The notes under the pieces were generated by a model. That model had not been told where the DNA came from, made no database searches, and saw only the letters and a list, made by a program, of their open reading frames with translations. This document shows positions 26,334 to 57,997 of a stretch of DNA of 64,000 nucleotides, in pieces (positions within the stretch are counted from its first letter, which is position 1; each line of letters begins with the position of its first letter). The position numbers were made by a program, and so were the translations under genes. Origin of the DNA: Podospora anserina (taxonomy: Eukaryota); assembly GCA_017654855.1 (NCBI GenBank), contig CM030337.1:2790001-2854000 (forward strand), written 5' to 3'.

Positions 26334-27520
26334 GTTGGTGATGATGATGGTGTTGATATTACTGGTAAGGTATAAATAAAGAGCGAATAGATAGTTGGTG
26401 GACGGTTTATGAAAATGCAAAGTCAAGCCCAAAACAAAGAAAAAAAATAGGAACCAAAGGGAAGTGGTATGGGAGAGACGGCATTGATATATAGGGTGAT
26501 GCGGCCATGCTTAGAACTTTTGCGTGATGAAAAGCGACCATATAAGGGTTCAGCTCGGACAACACGCCCTGCGTTAATGCCAGAAAGGGATGATATCAGG
26601 GTCCAAATAGGGGCTACTCAAATAAAACGATAATAATTGACAACGCCTCCCTGCAGATCCACCACTGGCTTTGCTTCTGACAGACTCGGCTGGCATTCTG
26701 TTTCATGCAGTGTGGAACAGGTGGCACGAATACGTTGGGAAGAAGAAGAAGAAGAAGAAGAAGAACAAAGAAGAAGCTCTCTCGCGCTCGCTCTCATCCG
26801 TGTGTACTTGGCGGGTGGTGTGTGTTGGCTCTGCGAAGGATTATGCCAAGACAGGGGTTTTTTTGGGGCCCAAAGTGAAGCCCAGGCAAGGGTTGATGGT
26901 GGCTGTGGCTGTGGAGGTAATGCGGCTGGATTAATTGTGATTCTGACTTGAGCATACGGATAACCGCCTGTGCCGTTGGATCGCATTGTGATATCGTGGG
27001 AGTTGTTGGGCTTGTCGGGTTTGCAATCTGGCCATGGTCAGCGTGACATGTTCTAGAACATGGCTAACTTGGTCAGGTAGCTAGCTCCCTGAGTGACAGC
27101 GGGGGTGCGGGGGATGTTTAGGGGACGAGCAGTGTCAATCGAAAATCAGAACAGCTGGGTATCGAGCATAAAGTTGTTGTAGTGGAGAATCCCTTCGTGC
27201 AGGTGGTCGTGGTGGGTGGGCGATCAAGAAGTGGGGCTGGAGCGCGTCACCACGCGACAAAAGCTTATCTTATCGAGCACGTCGTCGCCGCAATTGTTGC
27301 ATCTGGCTTCAACCGCAAGCTCCTACAAGGCCATTGTCCAAAGGCCATTCCATCGTCAAAATCTGTCGCAACTGCCATACGTGACCAAAGGCAGCCTCCT
27401 CTTGTCCCGGAGCCTGTGCAAATCCCCTTCCAGACAAACCTTTCTCTGCGTGGCTCCTCACCTCGACCTTGAACCTCGACCGCCTCTCCGCCCCCGCATG
27501 ACGACGGTATCACGGCCCCG

Positions 27521-29013
27521 ATGGCACCATCCGCGGCGAACCCGACGGCTCCGGCCACTAACGGACAGTCCGCCGCCCCCGCCGACGATGTCCCGATAGG
27601 ACCTGTCACCGGCCTGTCTGGGATGGCCACCCAGTACATCTCGGAGCAGACACTACAACAGAGGCTCAAGGCCATAGCGTACGAAGAGGCAAAGGACGAC
27701 CATTATAGGATAAGAGGCGTCCAATTGATTGACAACGTCCGCGAGGCACTGCAATTGTACGGCCACCATTGCTTTCCGTGACCAAGTTCAAGACGCTGAC
27801 GCGCTGCTAGACCCATCAAGACATTCGATACCGCAGCGATATACTACCACCGATTTCGGATCAGGTTTCCAAGTAGCGAATACAACTATGAAGATGTTGC
27901 ACTTGCCGCTTTGTTTGTGGCCTGCAAGTCTGAGGATACCATCAAAAAGTCACGAGATATTCTCTGCGCTGCCCATAACCTACGGTCACCCCACGACAAG
28001 AAGACACCCGATGACAAGGTAAGGATGTTCTTCGTCCATCCACTTTCTGAAATCTGTCCTGACAGCCAACGCAGCAATTTGACGCCCCCTCCAAGTTCAC
28101 GATAGGACTTGAACGCCACATTCTCGAAACCATCGGCTTCGACTTTCGAGCGCCATACCCGCAGAAGTTGTTGATCAAGATGGCCAAGAAGCTGGTACCG
28201 GAAGGGGAGCGCAACATGAAGTTTCCACGGGGAGAATGGAGCACGCTCACTTCATCGGAAAAACTACTACATACGGCCTACGACATGTCCATTGACATTT
28301 ACAAGACCTTCGTGCCCATCAAGCAGACAGCCCTCACCATGGTGTTGTCTATTGTGAGACTCACGGCCATGTTGATGGCACAAAGGTTGGAGCCGCCGAG
28401 GTTCAAAACGAAGGTGGCATCGCGTACGCAAGAAGCGTGTGTGTATGAGACGATGTTGGATCTTATGGATCTGTACACCACCCACCCACGTTCCACCAAG
28501 GTCGGACTCAACTACGAGCTTCAGCACCTGATGGATGTCAAGATCGAGATCAACAAGAGAATGACAGCCGAAGGCTTTCAGCGATACAACGCCATGTGCA
28601 AAAAGTGCACCGATCAACCTGACAACCGTTCTGTCACGCCGGGGTCCGTAACCTCGCCAGCAACTAACATGTCCGGGACCGGGGGGACCTCAGTTAAGCG
28701 CAAGAGGGCGAACAGCGAAGGCACCCTGCGCTTCGTGTTTGACGCGGGAGCTGCCCGCCAGGAACGAAATCTGGCTGCGACATATTTCAACGACGAATAC
28801 GAGGAGTACGAGGTGGAGGTGGAAGAAGAGATCAAGGTCCCACCAACTGACCCTCGGCATAACGCGGGTGGCGGACGGGGCAGCCATCACGGGCACCACG
28901 GTGGCCACCACAACAATCGACACGACTACGGCTACCACAACAGAGGCGGTAGGCATCCATATCACGATAACCGACACAGGGGCAACCGGCGAGGAGGCGC
29001 TGGGATGAACTAG
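27521..29013 (+). CDS. CTK2: Transcriptional cyclin, CTD-kinase subunit beta (Ctk2/cyclin K-like)
   Basis: Introns 27757-27810 and 28019-28074; cyclin box IDNVREALQLPIKTFDTAAIYYHRF, ALFVACKSEDTIKK and ERHILETIGFDF. Confidence 0.85.
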
Positions 29014-29787
29014 AGGTCTGCGCCGAGGTCGGGCTAGGCGTCTCCTCCGGGTATTGGACACGGCCAGCCGACACTGGACCAGCCTTTCCCTCCTGGGCCT
29101 CAGTTCACGTTGTCTATTCGGCCAAAGCCATCTGAAAAGCCCAAAGAACCTGTGCCTGAAACGCCGAAAGAACCCGCGCCTGGAAAGCCCAAAGAATCAA
29201 TACCCAAACAGGCCAAAGAACAACTGACAACACCTCAAAAGAGAGTTGTCCCTGACGAAGCCGATAAGCCAGGCTCGCCGAGTGCAAAGCGCCCTGCCGT
29301 GACACACACTGCTGCTGTGTACCGTGCCGTGCCGCAGCCCTACGGTCATGCCCATCCCAAGCAGCCTGTGGCTCAGGATCCCTACCACGTCACGTATTCC
29401 GCCGGCGGTGGGCCATCGGGGTATGCGCATCTGGGGAGAGTGGTGCCTCAAGCATTCTTCAACAGGCTCAGGGGCCGGCGTTTCGTAAGAGACAGGACCC
29501 ATCCGTGGCAAGACCCCAGTAGTGCCACGACAGGGCGGACAAGAAGTGGATATGTAGGAAGGAACGAGTTGCCTCCTTGGAGGCGAGATGGTAGTCTTGT
29601 GCCTGCGGCGGAGGTGCAGGGTCAACAGCAGGGCAGCGCGTCGGGTGAGACGGAAGGTCCACCACAACAGACCGATGCGCCGGACGAGAAGCAGGAGGGC
29701 GCTATCAAGGATGAGGAAGAAGGTGCAGCAGCACAGGACCAGGAGCAGAAGAAAGACACAGCAGAAGATGAGAAGCCCGAGGGATAG
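29014..29787 (+). other. Long in-frame extension downstream of the cyclin stop (one more TAG at 29035-29037; no ATG of its own)
   Basis: Same frame as the cyclin; about 250 open codons with low-complexity, protein-like P/K/E composition. Confidence 0.7.
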
Positions 29788-30078
29788 AAAGAGATGTTGT
29801 CATGCTGGGTGTGTTATTGGTGTTTGGAGTCTACGGGAGTTCTGATCAGCGGATGATGATTGATACCCAAAAATACACCACAAGACGGTGAGGCGGCTCG
29901 ATGTGCAGGTTTTGGAAAAGAGGCAAGGCATTGCTGCTGCTAAAAGTGTATAAATTCTAGATGAAGACTTTGGGGGGGTCGTTCGTTCCCGAAAGCGAGA
30001 AAATAGTACCCAACCTACCAACCAACGCCATGCTAAACATGAGAGCGTATGCAAATGCTTTTTTTTTTCTAAAGGGGG

Positions 30079-32035
30079 TCAAGTATCCTCCTCCCCCCGC
30101 CTCATCAACGCTTCCCTCAGCAGTTGCCTATGCTCCTTTATCACCTCATCCGCCTCCTTTGTCCGTCCCTGCACCCTGAGGCATTGATCAAGCGCGAGGA
30201 GCCCATCAGAAAGGTGGACGTCCTCCCCGTGCTCTTTCCAGCTTATGCGGCCACGTTTTATCACCTGTCGGAGGATCCCCTCGGCGGCTCGTACATCCCC
30301 CATGGCCATCTTTATGGAGCCGTACAAGAGATTGAACGACTCGGAGGCCTCCTGGACTTTGTTGACCTCTTTTAGTTTTATCGGATCGAGGAGGATGGGC
30401 TCGAGGAGGGAGGAGGCGGAGGTTAGATCGCCTAGGGTGAAGTAATGGGATGCCAGCCAGGCGCGGACGTCCATTTCCCTGCCGTCGAACACGTCAGGGA
30501 GGGAGGAGGTTACCCGAGTAAAAAGGGAGTGGAATTTGGGGGTGAGGAGGGTGGAGGAGGAGGGATGGTGGGGGGGGAGGGAGGTGAAGATGGAGAGGTT
30601 GGACAGTTCTATTGTTCTTTTGTGGAGGGGGGAGTAGTGGGAGGAAAAAAGGGAGACGGCGAGGGAGATGAGGGAGGAGAGGTGGGTGTGGTTGATTAGG
30701 GGGGACTTGTCATCGTTGTCTGGTGATGGTGAGGAGGGGGGCGAAAACAGGAGGGATTTCCCGTTGGAGTAGAGGACTTTCCAGAGCTGGGCAGTGGGGT
30801 GGGGGATGGCGCCGTTTTGGAGGCGGACGGTTTCGGTCAGTTCGAAGAGGTGTTTGAGGAGGTAGGTTTCCAGCCGTTGGAAGCTTGGGTCGGGTATGGA
30901 GCGGAAGAGGGTGAGAGCGTGCATTACCCAGAAGAAGAGGAGGGGGGATTCTCGACCGCTGGAGAGGGTGGAGGTGAGCTCGGCGAAGGTGATGCGGATT
31001 ACTTTTATTGACTGGGCGCGGTTGTCGGGGTGGGAGGTGTCGTGGAACAGACGGACGGCGGTCATTAGCCGGCGCCAGATCTCGAAGCCGCGGCGGACGC
31101 CGGTGTGGGTTGCCATCACGGCTTTGTCGTTGCGGGCTTGGTCTGGGGAGGTGGTGTCTTCGAGGAAGGACCAGCGGTTGGAGGTGAAGGATGCCGTGAA
31201 GTAATCCCTCACGGCGCGGTACATGTTCTCGGTTGACTGGAGGGTGTCGGGTGCCTGGAGGTTTCGAGGGGAGGGTGATCGGGAGAGGGACAAGGCGGTG
31301 GAGGTGGATGGGGGGGAGCTGGCGGTTTGCTTTCGGGATTTATGTTGTCGGAGGAGGTACCGTCGTTCGTCGTCCGTCATGAGCGACAAATCGATCCATT
31401 TGCCGTTTACTAGCAATAAACCTCTCCGTCGCTGTACATAAGGGACAGCATGCTGTTCATGATGGTGCGATGGAATAATCTCCTCGACATCATCTTCCTG
31501 AAGTTCGGGTTCGGGTTCGGGTTGGGCATGCTGACTGGCGTCTCCTGCTACGGGCCGCATCGGCATCGGCATCGGCAAGGGTTGCTTCAGCTTCGGCTTC
31601 CTTGGCCTGTTAGCCAAAACGCTGTCCGATCTCTTACGTTTCCCGAGGCCCCATCGTTTAAATCGTGCTCTGTACATTTTGTTCCTGCGGGTTTTGGTTT
31701 TGCTCGTCAGCAAACCCCCATCCCCTGCGCGAGTGGCCGACTTACGTGGCAAGGAAGCCATATCGAACCTCCATCGTCTGCATCAGCTGCGATAGGGTTT
31801 CACGATGGTACAGCTGGGTGATTATTTCCCTGTGCTTGTTGAAGTCCTCCTCGGTCGCCCATTTCTTCGTTCCGGTACTACTGCCTCCTCCTCCTCCTCC
31901 TCCTCTTCCTCCTCTTCCTCCTTCTTCTTCTCCTTCTCCTCCTGTCAGGCCTGTGATGCCGCTAGCCGGTGGTGCAGCTTCCCGTTCGACTGCCACGGTT
32001 GAAGGCCCGGGGCCAGCTCCGTCGCTTGCCACCAT
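30079..32035 (-). CDS. Clr5-domain protein
   Basis: WATEEDFNKHREIITQLY..LSQLMQTMEVRYGFLAT spliced (intron about 31687-31745) to KMYRARFKRWGLGK; helical C-terminus. Confidence 0.85.
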
Positions 32036-42078: not shown

Positions 42079-42312
42079 TTCAAGTCTCGATAACCGTGTT
42101 TTGTCCACGACGTACATGGCAACTGCCACTGCCTACATTACCTATCAACCTGCCCTCCGTCGTCCGACAGCAACATGAGCCAGAGGATTTCTTGCACACC
42201 TGGCTCTTTCACAATCTTCCAACCTACCAACTTAGCCAGGCGTCACATTCATTCATCAAAACACATTCATTCATCAAAACATCATTACAAACAACTATTA
42301 GCGCCCATCGTC

Positions 42313-43800
42313 ATGGATCACGATCGCCATGCTCGACGAGAGTGGAGTCACCGTTCGCGGGGTTACAAAATGGAGGGCCCTGTTTCCGGAATGATCGAAA
42401 CTCTCGAAAGTGGAATAGGTGTCGTCAAAACGCACCATGTCGAGATGAAACGGAACCTCCACTCGGCTTTCGCCATCCATTCGTCTATACATCTAGCCGA
42501 CCAGCGGGGCGGGTTCGATGAGCGTTGTCGAGACCCCGGCCTCCTCGACAAAATCATGACTCCACTGCCCATGGGCGCAGGCGACTTGTTCCCCGGGTGC
42601 TATGTATCAAAGCGTGCGTACGAGGAGTGGGATGTCGACGGCAAGGACACCATCACGATGCAACTTTGTTGCGAACAGCCCAATCACTTGGGTTTGCCAC
42701 CGGAGGCTATCACAGCCAATTTGGCGGTTGAGCTGTCTCCTCCCGCACCGCCCAACAGAAAGGGAGCGAAGTGGGAAAGGCATCGATATGGGCAGGTTTG
42801 GTTCCGGTTCAGCCTGAGCATGGAGACCGACATCTTCAACATGGTGACCAAGAGTCTGGACTTGCCCGGGGAATTACGAGCCATCAGGAAACTTCTCGCC
42901 ACCGCCGACCTGTTGGTGCAAGCAGCAGCTGAGAATACCATACATTGCAACTATGGGAACAGACCTTGGTAGTGCAAACCCGTCGTGGCGCCCTCTGGGG
43001 CATCTAGCAATGCGCCTGATGCCTTCGGCAGTAGAGCCGATGTCGTTTCCGCTGATACGGCTGCTGCCACTACAGCACTGGTGAACCTTCAAGGGGCTGG
43101 GGATCAAGAGGTGGCGAAGTTGACGGCCGAGAGGGACAAGTTCAGAAGTGATTGGGCGATGCTATCGACAGAGATACGAAACTTGAAAAATAATCTGGCC
43201 GTCGAAAAAAACAGCGCGGAGACGGCAGAGAAGAAGTTGGAGAAGGCAGAGAAGGGGCTGGAGAAGGTAGTTGAGGAGAGGGATAGGTTGAAGTCAAACT
43301 CCGAAAGGCAGGCCAAGCAAATCACAGCCCTGAATTATGCTCAAGTAAAACTCAGGAATGAGAACGCAAAACTCAAGGAGGAGCGGACAGAGGCGCAAAA
43401 TACAAAGAAGAAGTTGGAAAGAGAAGCCAAAGACCTCAGAGGGAAGAACGCTGTCTTGGAGGAAGATCGGAAGGCCGAAGAGGACAGGCAGCAGAAGGCT
43501 CGTGAGGAGGAGGACATGAGGCAGAAGATGCTTGATGCCAGAGAACAGAGCTTTTGTGAATGGGAAAGGTTGCTCGAGCAGAGGGAAAGGTCACTGGCCG
43601 AGAAGGAATGGTCACTGGCCGAGAAGGAATGGTCACTGGCCGAGAGGGAAAGGTCACTGGCCGAGGGCGCGCCTCAGCCGCAGCAGGAGGCCCTTCAGAA
43701 TGAGACTTCTCAAGCAGACAATAACACCATTCCGGAGAAGTCTTTCCGTCCGATTCCGGCATCTGACAATGCGGCAAGTGAAAGAAGGCAAAGTATTTGA
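42313..43800 (+). CDS. Orphan protein: globular N-terminal part and long coiled coil, separated by an in-frame TAG (42970-42972)
   Basis: ORFs 42175-42972 and 42985-43800 share a frame (RPW*CKPVVAP). The coiled-coil part has a 21-bp repeat (EKEWSLA) near 43582-43663. Confidence 0.65.
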
Positions 43801-53050: not shown

Positions 53051-54371
53051 CAGTGGGGGGGCCGGGAGGGGTGGGGGGTTTGTCATAGTATTCCATGTCA
53101 TGATACCAGATACCAGATTTGCTTTTGAAAGAGGTCAATCTAAGTTTTATCAGGCTGTTCTCTAATCTGATGCAATCATGGTTGCTATGCTGGCCTGGGG
53201 TTCAGTCAGTGGCCTGTGGGTTTGGGTGTGGCAGTGGGACTCACGGAGATTCAGGGGTTCAGGGGTTCATGCATAAAAGGTGGCCATTTTACTCGCACTC
53301 TACCTTGGACAAATCATTGACTTTTTATTCTTTACTTTTAGTGCCTCACACCCGTACAGGCCTATTTTGCCCCTCTTATCAGGGCAATCCTGTGCCTATT
53401 ATGTGGCCTGCGAGCCCATAGTGTCCATGTCCCGTCTTCCGTGGAGAGCGGCCTGCGAGCGAGTCACTGTCACGGAAAGGACGCTTTCAAAGCCCCGGTG
53501 AGGGCTTAGTTGTAGTATTTTGTGTGTTTTTCCCACCGTTTAAATGTTTCATAAAGAATGGGAAGGTTGTGATAAAAAAGGGATGGATATGATGACTGAC
53601 CATGGCCTCACAGGGTGTTTAGTGGAAGGATCTCTGGTTTATTCTGCCTGCCTGGCATGAGTCGCGCCATTACGAGCCTTTTCCAGTAGCATCACCGGCA
53701 TTCCATCGGGCCCCCAGCCCGTCCAGAAGTCACCTATCTACGCATTGGTTGACTCTCGACTACAGGGTCAAATGTCGGAAACTACCTGGTCTATCTTGCA
53801 TTCTAGGATTTTGTGGTGCCACAGAAGGTTGAAAAGGCCCCGTAGCAAAAACGACGGTCCCAGCAAAGTCCTCCTGTAACTAAAGTGGGTAACAAATTCG
53901 CAATATAAACAGTCTCAAGCCCCCTCACAACTGAAAAAGACAATAAGCCAACAAGGTCAATAGAATCAAGTTTCTAGTCACACTTTTATAAGAGGCAAAG
54001 AAAGAAAGCCCATAGTCATGTATCTCAAGCCACACAAATTTCTAAATTCAACAGAGCACAAGCAAGCTGAGCTAGCTAGCTAGATAGATAGATAGATAGG
54101 CAATCCAAAGTTCAACTCAATCAAAAACCACCCCTTGCGTCCAGGAGCAGTCAAAGTTCCATCTCTTTTCTTTTTTTAAAGAAACAAACAATGCTATTTC
54201 TGTCATTCTTCCAATTTCCAATCATCCCCAAAGAATCGAAAGTTGGGTAACGCAAAAGTATCAATCATCGTCAGACAATAACCCCTTTTCTCTCTTTCAC
54301 AAGTTCCATTTCCTTCACTGATGCTTCTGCCTGGTCTTAGAAGACAAAATCTTCACACCCCCTGTGTTGAT

Positions 54372-55526
54372 TTAAGCGGGAGTAGGGCGAGGGACGCGGG
54401 TGAAGCTCTTGGTGGGGAGGGGGGGAAGGGGGCGAGCGCTGCGGGTGGCGGTCGGCTTGGGGGGAGTCACTGGCTTGGTGGGCTTGGGGGGAGTCACTGG
54501 CTTGGTGGGCTTGGGGGGAGTCACTGGCTTGGTTGGCTTGGGAGGAGTGACGGGCTTCGTTGGCTTAGGGGGAGTGACGGGCTTCGTTGGCTTGGGAGGG
54601 GTCACTGGCTTGGTGGGCTTGGGAGGGGTCACTGGCTTGGTGGGCTTGGGAGGGGTCACTGGCTTGGTGGGCTTGGGGGGAGTGACCGGTTTGGTAGGCT
54701 TGGGGGGAGTGACTGGCTTGGTGGGCTTGGGGGGCTCCTCACGGGCAGCCTTGGTCCTGGTCAATGTTGGGCGAGGCGGGCGAGCGGTGCGGCTGATGGT
54801 CAAGACGGGGGGCTTGGTTGGCTTGGGCGGGAGCACAACCGAGCGAGTTGGCTTGGGTGGGAGCACAACGGAGAGAGTCGGCTTGGGGGGAAGGACGACA
54901 GACTTGGTTGGCTTAGGAGGAAGGACGACAGACTTGGTTGGCTTGGGAGGGGTGACAGGCTTGGTAGGCTTGGGGGGAGTGACAGGCTTGGTAGGCTTGG
55001 GGGGAGTCACTGGCTTAGTCGGCTTGGGAGGGAGGACCGGCTTCGTGGGCTTGGGAGGAGTCACGGGCTTGGTTGGCTTGGGGGGCACAACAGCGGACTT
55101 GGTCGGCTTGGGGGGGGGAGGGCGGACGGAGCGGGTAGGCTTGGGCTCATCGCGAGCAGCCTTGGACTTGGTGAGCTTGGGGGGGAGGACCGGCTTGGTG
55201 GGCTTGGGAGGAAGGACCGGCTTAGTCGGCTTAGGAGGGAGGACTGGCTTGGTCGGCTTGGGAGGAGCAACGCTCTTGGTCGGCTTCGGGGGAGGCGGCT
55301 TGACCGACTTGGTAGGCTTGGGCGGGAGAACCACGGACCTGGTAGGCTTGGGCGGAAGAACCACAGACTTGGTCGGCTTAACGGGAGGAACGAAGCCTGT
55401 GGGACGGCCAGTCGGGCGGGGGGGACGAGTAGCCACAAGGTCGACATCGGCATCAGCCACAGGCAGGGCAATGGCCTGCTGAATGGCCGCAGCCGCAGCG
55501 AGGAGGGTGATGAGAATGCGAGTCAT
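54372..55526 (-). CDS. Secreted Pro/Lys/Thr-rich repeat protein (PPKPTKPVT)n, extensin-like
   Basis: Signal peptide MTRILITLLAAAAAIQQAIA; 30+ PKPT-core units encoded by 27-30-bp tandem repeats. Confidence 0.88.
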   Translation of the reverse strand: MTRILITLLAAAAAIQQAIALPVADADVDLVATRPPRPTGRPTGFVPPVKPTKSVVLPPKPTRSVVLPPKPTKSVKPPPPKPTKSVAPPKPTKPVLPPKPTKPVLPPKPTKPVLPPKLTKSKAARDEPKPTRSVRPPPPKPTKSAVVPPKPTKPVTPPKPTKPVLPPKPTKPVTPPKPTKPVTPPKPTKPVTPPKPTKSVVLPPKPTKSVVLPPKPTLSVVLPPKPTRSVVLPPKPTKPPVLTISRTARPPRPTLTRTKAAREEPPKPTKPVTPPKPTKPVTPPKPTKPVTPPKPTKPVTPPKPTKPVTPPKPTKPVTPPKPTKPVTPPKPTKPVTPPKPTKPVTPPKPTKPVTPPKPTATRSARPLPPLPTKSFTRVPRPTPA

Positions 55527-57997
55527 CGTGAAATCTGTCTTGAGAGGGCTGTTCCCAGAAGCTGAAACTTACTACCCAAGTGCCGAAGAAGATGATGAGC
55601 CTGTCGAGAAGAGAAGCCGCTTCTAACCTGCACCGTCCACCACGTTTATATACTCACCGTGAGACCTCATCGACGCTTCCCATGCGCAATCACGATGCAA
55701 CGATGTCGCCACAATCGTCGAGAAGCTCGTCCATGTCTGGCCGCGACTGAGCCAAGGATGCCGATATTGAGATTGCAACCCAGAGGACAGGACTTTTGAC
55801 CATCTGGTGAATCACCTCACTGGCTCCCCCTGGTTGTAGTTCGACGTCCGGGCAGCGCAACGTTGAGGCGGTTGAATAGAGCGCGGTACAAATTAAAGGG
55901 CAAGCATCAATATAGTCGGAACTCAGCATACAGCATCTGCAGCAGCAATAACGGTGAGCAGCACAATTTGTGGCTCACAACGCGTAACGTCGTCCCCGGT
56001 AAATGTCGAAATCGGGGCGCACTCGTACCCATTTTCCCGCCCAACGGGAGAGTGGCGCTTAGCCGCAAACATGAGGTAAACATGTCGTGATCGACCTGCG
56101 AATATCGTCAGTTGAAATAACCGGATGGTGCAGATTTGTATAGACAGCTGATTGCCTTTCTTAGAATTGTACAGTTCCGCCAACCCGGTCAACCGCATGC
56201 GGGCCGAGTACCCAAGCCACAAAGCCCAGAGTTGCGGCTTTCATCAGACAAACATCGACATCAGACACTTCTCGACATCTTTCTTCCTCAGATTTTTTGA
56301 TGTCCGATCTCAGCTGATTCAGGGGTATCGGCAGGTGTGGTCTTGGCATGCTCTTTAGCCTCACTAAGTGCCGGTAAGGCGATGACACCGATGCTTGTTG
56401 TGTGCTCGGAGCGATCTAGACTGCGATGGGTTTGTGGGGGGATAGTGCAACCACGGAGAAATGAGGTCGACGTAAGCTTCATAAGCTTATCCGGGACCTA
56501 CATGACGAGCACTGGGTGGACGACAAGGTTGCAAAAGGCCTGGGGAGCGCACCCAACGGGACCAGCAGCTTGCATCATTCTCCACCCGGATCTTGTTGAT
56601 TGGGATCGCCAGGGTGCCGTCGAGGTGGTGGATGGTCATACAATCAAGCGTGGTACAGTCGTAGAAGAACTCGGAGGCTGTTTACCCGCGAGCGCTAGGA
56701 CAGAAACAGCTCCGTGACTGCCAATGTGGTCAATGTAGCCAAAGATGGTTGAGCACAACTCTGAGCGGATTGTCACCCGTTGGCGTCGTCATCACCACAA
56801 CCTCTTCTGATCTAGCTCGAGAGAAACGGAATCTGCCGCTTTGGCGGGACAGGGTTAGCTCAGACTTTCCCCATGTTTTCGCTTCCTCTCGTCCAAGCAA
56901 GCTGTTGAATGCTACGCTGGTGGTGGTGTTTGGCTGTACTCCAGATATCGCTTCACACACGCTTCCAGTTAGCGAGAGGCGGGATCAGGGGTAAAGTCAA
57001 CGGGGTCTCACCGAGGCTAAAATGGCGAGAATGCGGGGGGTGCAGCCAAAGCGAAGAAAAACGTTTCGGAATGGGGGTGGCTGCCCACATCCCGTCCGGA
57101 GGGCGGTTATCATGTCCGAGAAGAGATATGAGCAGGAGCAAAAGACGGGTCGAGCGGTGCGGACCCAGATCCGTACAGTGTTGGTTCGAGTTGGGGAACG
57201 GAACCCCTGGTTGGGGATAAGTTGGGTGCAATTCTGCGCCAAGTGGGAAAACGCCCTGGTTGCTACTACCATAGCTGTCCCTCCAATCGAGAGAGCCGAA
57301 AGTTCGAGAAGCGGGAGCTGGGAGTGACGAGAGAGCACCATGTGGAGGTTGTCGAATCGATGTGCCTGTCGAGCGTCATGTCAGAATTGGAAGAGGGTGT
57401 GAAGCAATCTGGCATCTATGCCCGATAACGGCAGGGGTAATGGTTGTCCAAGCTTGGACTTGACTCCTGAAGGCTTGATGGGTGAGAATGAGTTCCTTGC
57501 CTTCAAGTCAGTAACCCTAGAGGCTTGCAAGAAAAAGAAACCAGAAGGGTGAGAGATGGACAAGAAAAGCAATGAGGAGAACGGTCCGAGTGGCCCCAGG
57601 CGCACGAATTGCGGAGAATAGTGCAGACGATGAGCAAGTTGGAGCAGTGATGGTGTTACGTCTGAGTCTTGTCCCAAGGATCATGGTTCAAGACTTCGGA
57701 GAGGAAGGCACCGGATTGGTTCACGGCACTCAGACACGGTACGTGCTTGCCGTTCTGGTAGGATGATGCCAGGCCGGCTAGAGCTAGCCTGCAGGTGATG
57801 CTTTCCTTCCTGGTTTGAAGACAACTGCAAAGAGCTTGATGGGAATGCTTGCAAAGATAGCCAGCCAAATTCCCGTGTTGAACACTGTTGACAGAGGTGC
57901 AATCAGTACATTAATTATTAACGGGAATTGTCTTACCTGGGCCAACTTCCCAGTTCCCACACTCTGTGGATGTTCAGACCAGAACTTCTAAAGTATC

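Follow-up and report, generated by a model that had tools for sequence, protein, structure and literature searches.

Translation of the Podospora anserina gene Pa_6_6890, which encodes a Ctk2-like cyclin of 460 amino acids (aa), probably terminates in the ordinary way at its conserved TAG stop codon, and the long open frame that continues in the same register behind a second TAG is best read as a lineage-restricted, coding-like and apparently untranslated segment of the 3' untranslated region (3'UTR), a reading to which we assign a probability of roughly 0.6. The gene lies on the plus strand of a 64,000-nucleotide (nt) stretch of the genome (assembly GCA_017654855.1, contig CM030337.1, positions 2,790,001 to 2,854,000), hereafter called the window, whose first letter is position 1. 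An earlier note on this DNA had proposed that both TAGs are edited or read through to give a long isoform of the cyclin. We favor ordinary termination because the end of the protein is conserved, the downstream translation has no relatives, its codon statistics differ from those of genes, and the assembled RNA is unedited. Under this reading, translation of the Pa_6_6890 mRNA would end at the UAG at 29011-13 to give the 460-aa Ctk2-like cyclin, the 249-codon frame would be part of a GC-rich, T-poor 3'UTR of about 1 kb, and a single edit of the first UAG by the adenosine deaminase ADAT would yield a product halted by the second UAG after eight additional residues, so that the second stop would serve as a backstop. 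The anatomy, the extent of the transcript, the absence of a further intron and of relatives, and the codon statistics are established here; non-translation and the origin of the segment are inferences. As codon-like periodicity has been kept, the segment probably derives from low-complexity sequence in triplet phase or from sequence that resembles coding DNA, or else is young. The indirect evidence tilts against an extension that is both translated and under selection.

Conserved end of the cyclin and anatomy of the downstream frame

The assignment of Pa_6_6890 as a Ctk2-like cyclin, already made in the earlier note, was borne out by a Pfam match of exon 2 to PF00134 (Cyclin_N; E 9.2e-6, 25.8 bits against a cut-off of 23), a family carried by most of the orthologues listed, by the identity of exon 3 to PODANS_6_6890 (P0126; 100%) and to the P. 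bellae-mahoneyi "RNA polymerase II C-terminal domain kinase beta subunit" (98%), and by the names under which orthologues are filed in databases ("C-terminal domain (CTD) kinase subunit beta", and for Fusarium matches "related to CTK2"), which are source names only. The reference protein P0126 is 450 aa long and is without ten residues (VREALQLPIK) that are present in the 460-aa models of the sister species; the intron 1 boundary of the reference record appears to be misplaced, as the 54-nt intron found in the contigs of three RNA runs supports the 460-aa form. A borderline match to Pfam DUF2103 ("predicted metal-binding protein"; 22.7 bits against a cut-off of 22.4) in exon 3 at 28591-28812 (residues 173-246) is probably a composition effect.

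The sequence at the stop (ATG AAC TAG AGG TCT GCG CCG AGG TCG GGC TAG GCG, with the canonical stop at 29011-29013) is as it was quoted earlier, and the anatomy then described was confirmed: there are two TAGs, and 258 codons run from the first TAG through the last sense codon. Also present in the translation are the features that had been listed for it, namely the lack of an ATG, repeats of PKEP, a basic RLRGRRF patch and an acidic tail. The 249-residue translation (P0001) contains neither methionine nor cysteine, and its abundant residues are P, A, G, Q, E and K. Through the end of the open frame GC content is about 0.6 and T 8-21%, beyond which GC is only 0.45-0.49 and T reaches 25-27%; this drop is not independent evidence for the frame, because open frames end wherever T-rich sequence begins.

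Searches with the extension gave no Pfam family, and Rfam returned no match at E<=1 over 28800-30200. In the ESM Atlas both the recognition (957) and the best score (0.80) were at the level of shuffled sequences. An AlphaFold2 model made without an alignment, which is a weak test, had a mean predicted local distance difference test score (pLDDT) of 55.1, a predicted template modeling score (pTM) of 0.17 and two short helices; the model is compatible with disorder and offers no confident fold. Comparison of the extension with the rest of the window revealed no self-similarity beyond a 29-nt match at E 0.04.

The C-terminal end position is common to all 12 aligned orthologues (seven Podospora-complex sequences, Triangularia, Apiosordaria, two other Podospora species and a Neurospora), and the seven Podospora-complex sequences share the C-terminus ...RRGGAGMN. 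When the read-through protein was used as the query, none of the matches listed (120 of 201, E<=0.001) covered more than 55% of it. Long Ctk2 forms of Colletotrichum and Cosmosporella were considered as precedents for a C-terminal tail and rejected, as their extra length is N-terminal and their C-terminal end is the same. Against 1.84 billion protein representatives, the sole match to the extension alone was P0002, a GTG-started open reading frame (ORF) called on the same DNA, and a search among proteins of near length again returned P0002 only; proteins of 30-135 aa gave none at E<=0.01, and an extended end occurred in none of the ten members of the cyclin's 90% cluster. Lack of conservation, which the earlier note had named as telling against its proposal, was thus seen within the sequences compared. 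In premature-stop-corrected genes such as PUK1, the sequence behind the UAG is ancestral and conserved; here it is the C-terminus that is shared, and the extension is without relatives. As far as seen, the extension would seem to be restricted to the Podospora lineage and not to be an old part of the protein.

At the DNA level the relatives compared were seven metagenome loci of 44-54% identity, the nearest genera (Triangularia and Apiosordaria among those aligned) being compared as protein. The gene end is present in six of the seven loci, with TGA as the stop in four and TAG and TAA in one each, and tblastn of the extension against all seven found nothing downstream of the cyclin. Synteny was likewise absent in these loci, which had no match to the convergent neighbor Pa_6_6900 or to the upstream ORF and whose downstream neighbors differ. 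In a related fungus of 53-54% identity (L004 1234-1701, L007 511-978), the cyclin TGA is followed by three codons, another TGA and 150 open in-frame codons. The L004 stretch overlaps a 222-codon ORF of the opposite strand (1416-2084), and is probably the shadow of a convergent gene, which illustrates how such in-frame ORFs can originate.

A closer comparison came from a P. comata-like fragment (P0125) covering the last 62 residues, which differs at three of them, each by a single change at codon position 2. By inference, we paired it with an exon-3 call identical to that of P. comata; cyclin exon 3 of this presumed same source has four changes in 277 residues. On these small numbers, the fragment gives no apparent sign of constraint.

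Codon choice in the open frame

The synonymous codon score of the open frame was -0.069 per codon, compared with 0.03-0.24 in ten genes of the window and 0.087 in cyclin exon 3. Gene-like recodings of the same residues never scored as low (0 of 2000), and the score fits a non-coding composition, 22% of such nulls being at least as high. Cytosine occupied codon position 3 at a frequency of 0.205, compared with 0.34-0.40 in genes. The sense-versus-antisense codon score was +0.066, which falls in the gap between the windows of real genes (73 of 73 at 0.12 or more) and the presumed antisense-shadow ORFs of the window (-0.03 to -0.32). By the measures that mark ordinary coding sequence in this genome, then, the frame has the 3-base periodicity and lacks both the codon choice and the sense score, and it is without the marks of a regularly translated gene.

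Transcript and RNA contigs

Table S1 of Lelandais et al. 2022 (PMC9801653) lists one transcript for Pa_6_6890, with a transcription start site at 2782067, a transcription end site at 2784776, a 5'UTR of 217 nt and a 3'UTR of 1002 nt. We mapped it to the window by setting the start of the coding sequence (CDS) to 27521 (offset 2754763; accuracy about 2 nt), and the contig of RNA run X1 begins at 27320. As the mapped transcript reaches about 30013, the entire open frame is inside the mRNA. The 3'UTR is unusually long, the median and mean in P. anserina being reported as 212 and 288 nt.

Both known introns (27757-27810, 54 nt, GT..AG; and 28019-28074, 56 nt, with the cut moved by +2) are spliced in the contigs of three public runs (X1, X15 and X12). 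These contigs are unbroken from 28073 to 30406-30569, with no other letter and no further joint, and they carry A at both 29012 and 29036; the growth stage of the runs is not recorded and assembly drops minority variants. A fourth run, X7, had no contig over the cyclin gene. In the main RNA form, accordingly, both TAGs are retained and no intron bypasses them. Since the contigs extend into the neighboring gene, they do not by themselves define the 3' end. An in-frame intron scan yielded 49 GT..AG combinations, all with poor donors and all of at least 198 nt, and none was convincing; in the PMC9801653 supplements searched, Pa_6_6890 occurs in Table S1 only, and they list no alternative splicing event for it. 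The earlier note had named a transcript ending before 29100 and an alternative intron skipping the stops as outcomes that would tell against its proposal. Neither was found: the end maps to about 30013, the contigs cross the region, and no such intron is present in the three runs or credible among the scanned candidates.

Points against ordinary termination and the alternative readings

Several observations weigh against ordinary termination. Only 3 of 20,000 mononucleotide shuffles of the 747 nt stayed open, and the analytic probability of openness given the segment's own composition was 2e-4 (mononucleotide) to 6e-4 (first-order Markov). The 3-base periodicity (chi2 52.2) compares with 59.7 for cyclin exon 3 and 0.9-20.6 for eight control windows, and was reached by none of 5000 nulls conditioned on openness (maximum 29.7). 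Codons of the frame favor G at position 1 and A or C at position 2, like those of coding frames, and by codon log-odds the plus frame is the best of six, at -0.045 versus -0.061 for the cyclin's own disordered tail. The frame shares its register with the cyclin, and each of the three stops is a TAG. The difference in changes between the P. comata-like fragment and exon 3 (3/62 versus 4/277) is not significant (Fisher test, p = 0.12). Finally, both TAGs have U at -1 and G at +1, and a long edited extension with peptide evidence is described in Sordaria white collar 1 (131 aa; PMC6794485), as set out below.

These points bear most directly on sexual-stage double stop-loss editing, in which the Tad2/Tad3 ADAT machinery would edit both UAGs in perithecia to give an isoform of 718 aa whose disordered 258-aa tail would alter the dosage, stability or localization of the CTD-kinase cyclin. 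We regard this as unlikely, though far from negligible. UAG is the one stop codon that fungal adenosine-to-inosine editing turns into a tryptophan codon, as UIG is read as UGG. The preferences reported for this editing are U at -1, A or G at +1 and +3, and hairpin loops (PMC11156358). Position 29012 has U at -1 and G at both +1 and +3; position 29036 has U at -1 and G at +1, but C at +3. No notably stable hairpin was seen at either TAG, the minimum free energy folds of 61-125 nt around them giving z = -0.69, +1.27 and +0.15 against shuffles, with diffuse ensembles. The open, periodic frame lies wholly within the mRNA; ADAT genes are reported to be up-regulated in P. anserina sexual development (preprint 10.1101/2024.12.09.627484); and the stop-loss genes of Fusarium graminearum, the tandem UAGs of PUK1 and the Sordaria white collar 1 extension offer precedents. 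Dataset S1 of PMC13123824 gives 403 stop-loss genes in F. graminearum, including a "ctd kinase subunit gamma" at 35% editing, and in Sordaria macrospora 15 stop-loss events have peptide evidence, 73% of them conserved in Neurospora (PMC6794485). On the other side stand the lack of A>G in the contigs of the three runs, which is a weak test, the lack of an extended form in protein collections and of detectable relatives, a codon choice that is not gene-like, and the need for two edits on one molecule. In addition, a keyword search of the 403 F. graminearum genes gave no cyclin-like or CTD kinase beta subunit annotation, a keyword search of the readable Sordaria supplement files (PMC6794485) gave no Ctk2 entry, and no P. 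anserina editing map was found in the literature surveyed. The fuller version of the proposal, that the UAGs, 24 nt apart, are co-edited in perithecia and that a young, Podospora-specific tail on the 718-aa Ctk2 isoform retunes the RNA polymerase II (Pol II) CTD kinase in ascus or ascospore development, is a speculation that we hold to be doubtful.

The remaining explanations do without editing. That a T-poor stretch of 3'UTR is stop-free in one frame by pure chance seems improbable, as the earlier note had also judged; shuffles and analytic estimates put the probability of openness at 1.5e-4 to 6e-4 (about 1e-7 to 1e-6 if the flank that follows the ORF supplies the composition), and the periodicity, the register shared with the cyclin and the TAG identity of both stops add to the difficulty. 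The four out-of-register frames of the same stretch contain 4-9 stops, and the in-register antisense frame contains one. Low T (14.6%) alone, however, gives a disordered-looking mix of residues and fewer stops, in-frame open stretches of 115-175 codons lie downstream of the cyclin in two of five distinct related loci (at least one overlapping an opposite-strand ORF), and some cases are expected among the approximately 11,000 genes of P. anserina (PMC10936905); openness alone would be expected about once genome-wide, and only if all 3' flanks shared this composition. A minus-strand gene or relic at 29799-29197, of which the plus frame would be the antisense shadow, is very improbable. Its third positions are gene-like (A.09, C.41, G.28, T.22), its synonymous score is 0.120, and window ORFs with GC of about 0.7 at codon position 1 and about 0.5-0.55 at position 3, as in the plus frame, are usually in-register antisense shadows. 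But its translation is 18.5% leucine, 11.5% arginine and 6% cysteine, with almost no acidic residues and the first methionine about halfway, it matches no Pfam family, its sense score is -0.035, the neighbor's transcripts end at 29912-29971, the transcript published for this region belongs to the plus-strand gene, and it is the plus frame that ORF callers picked on public contigs; the minus frame is probably itself the shadow of the plus frame. About equally improbable is translation through a rare alternative intron, a non-AUG start or unedited readthrough of both UAGs. The frame is open and periodic, and public ORF callers used near-cognate GTG and TTG starts on it, but no extra joint occurs in the contigs that show both known introns, and the intron combinations and splicing supplements described above offer no candidate. 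Plain readthrough would be very inefficient across two successive stops. To our knowledge, the UAG-AGG and UAG-GCG contexts match no readthrough motif, which also counts against it. Ordinary termination at the first TAG thus remains our preferred reading.

Other features of the window

The coordinates of the gene, its transcript and the elements behind its stop are collected in Table 1.

Table 1. Positions, strands and sources of features in and around Pa_6_6890
Feature	Position	Strand	Source
Pa_6_6890 mRNA (5'UTR 217 nt, 3'UTR 1002 nt)	27304..30013, ends approximate	+	Table S1 of PMC9801653
Cyclin CDS exon 1	27521..27756	+	sequence; joint 27756->27811 in contigs of 3 RNA runs
Cyclin CDS exon 2 (Cyclin_N)	27811..28018	+	Pfam PF00134; 56-nt joint in 3 runs
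Cyclin CDS exon 3, including canonical stop TAG 29011-29013	28075..29013	+	sequence; identity to P0126
Seven sense codons (RSAPRSG, 29014-29034) and second in-frame TAG 29035-29037	29014..29037	+	sequence
249-codon open frame (29038-29784) and TAG 29785-29787, cyclin frame, inside 3'UTR	29038..29787	+	sequence
24-nt tandem repeat, 2.7 copies, underlying the PKEP repeats	29132..29196	+	repeat scan
In-register antisense open frame, 200 codons, rich in L, R, C	29197..29799	-	ORF list
Rest of 3'UTR, A+T-richer (GC 0.45-0.49, T 0.25-0.27)	29788..30013	+	composition, transcript table
Convergent neighbor Pa_6_6900	30079..31782	-	ORF list; transcript table of PMC9801653; weak tetratricopeptide repeat (TPR) matches below Pfam cut-offs

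The mRNA of the convergent neighbor Pa_6_6900 ends at about 29971 or about 29912 according to Table S1 of PMC9801653, and therefore stops short of the open frame. The two mRNAs overlap tail to tail at their 3' ends by about 40-100 nt (29912-30013), and the RNA contigs bridge both genes, stopping at 30406-30569 within the Pa_6_6900 coding region.

Elsewhere in the window, two gene-like ORFs of 292 and 275 codons on the plus strand (42094-43800) lie in one frame and are parted only by a TAG at 42970-72; their sense scores are 0.30 and 0.39, and neither matches a Pfam family. This TAG was rejected as an editing candidate in favor of a 63-nt in-frame intron at 42969-43031 (GTAGTG ... CTGAT ... CAG) that probably removes it, and we take the locus for a likely ordinary gene rather than a target of editing. 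At 54282-55568, three open frames of 368-427 codons, distributed over both strands, overlap one another, and GC is high at each of their codon positions.

Implications and comparison with known systems

If the long isoform were made, RNA editing would supply a core kinase of transcription elongation with a subunit specific to the sexual stage, and the locus would show a lineage-specific protein tail recruited from a 3'UTR; it would also be the longest stop-loss extension in the surveyed literature and the first that needs a canonical and a backup stop both edited. If it is not made, the locus is a caution that a 1-kb 3'UTR can harbor a long and periodic in-frame ORF downstream of editable stops that does not code for an extension, and that codon-choice tests separate such a frame from real exons of the same window. 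In either case it bears on the dispute over the general adaptiveness of stop-loss editing (PMC13123824 versus the letter PMC13684035).

Among the systems described in these sources, FgDBF2, FgMOB1 and FgCDC14 of F. graminearum (PMC13123824) resemble Pa_6_6890 in being Sordariomycete regulatory genes with a canonical UAG followed by disordered, poorly conserved downstream sequence, and their extensions are proposed to tune dosage in the sexual stage. They differ in that one edit adds 24, 11 and 27 aa, at measured editing levels of 70-78%, whereas Pa_6_6890 would need two edits for 258 aa and shows A at both sites in its RNA contigs. Sordaria white collar 1 is closer in taxonomy (Sordariales) and likewise has a long C-terminal extension behind a UAG, but this depends on a single edit and comes with peptides and a predicted domain, while that of Pa_6_6890 is without relatives, domain or confident fold.

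Two further systems share the arrangement of successive stops. In rfk-1 of Neurospora Sk-2 (bioRxiv 10.1101/2020.12.30.424869), an early UAG is followed by a later stop and editing chooses between a short and a long product; rfk-1, however, is a meiotic-drive killer gene with genetic proof, and Pa_6_6890 is a housekeeping cyclin. In PUK1 of F. graminearum (PMC4817773), two in-frame UAGs are both edited for the long product. Because the stops of PUK1 are inside the conserved kinase domain, its downstream part is clearly ancestral coding sequence, whereas the downstream part of Pa_6_6890 lies beyond the C-terminus of all aligned orthologues.

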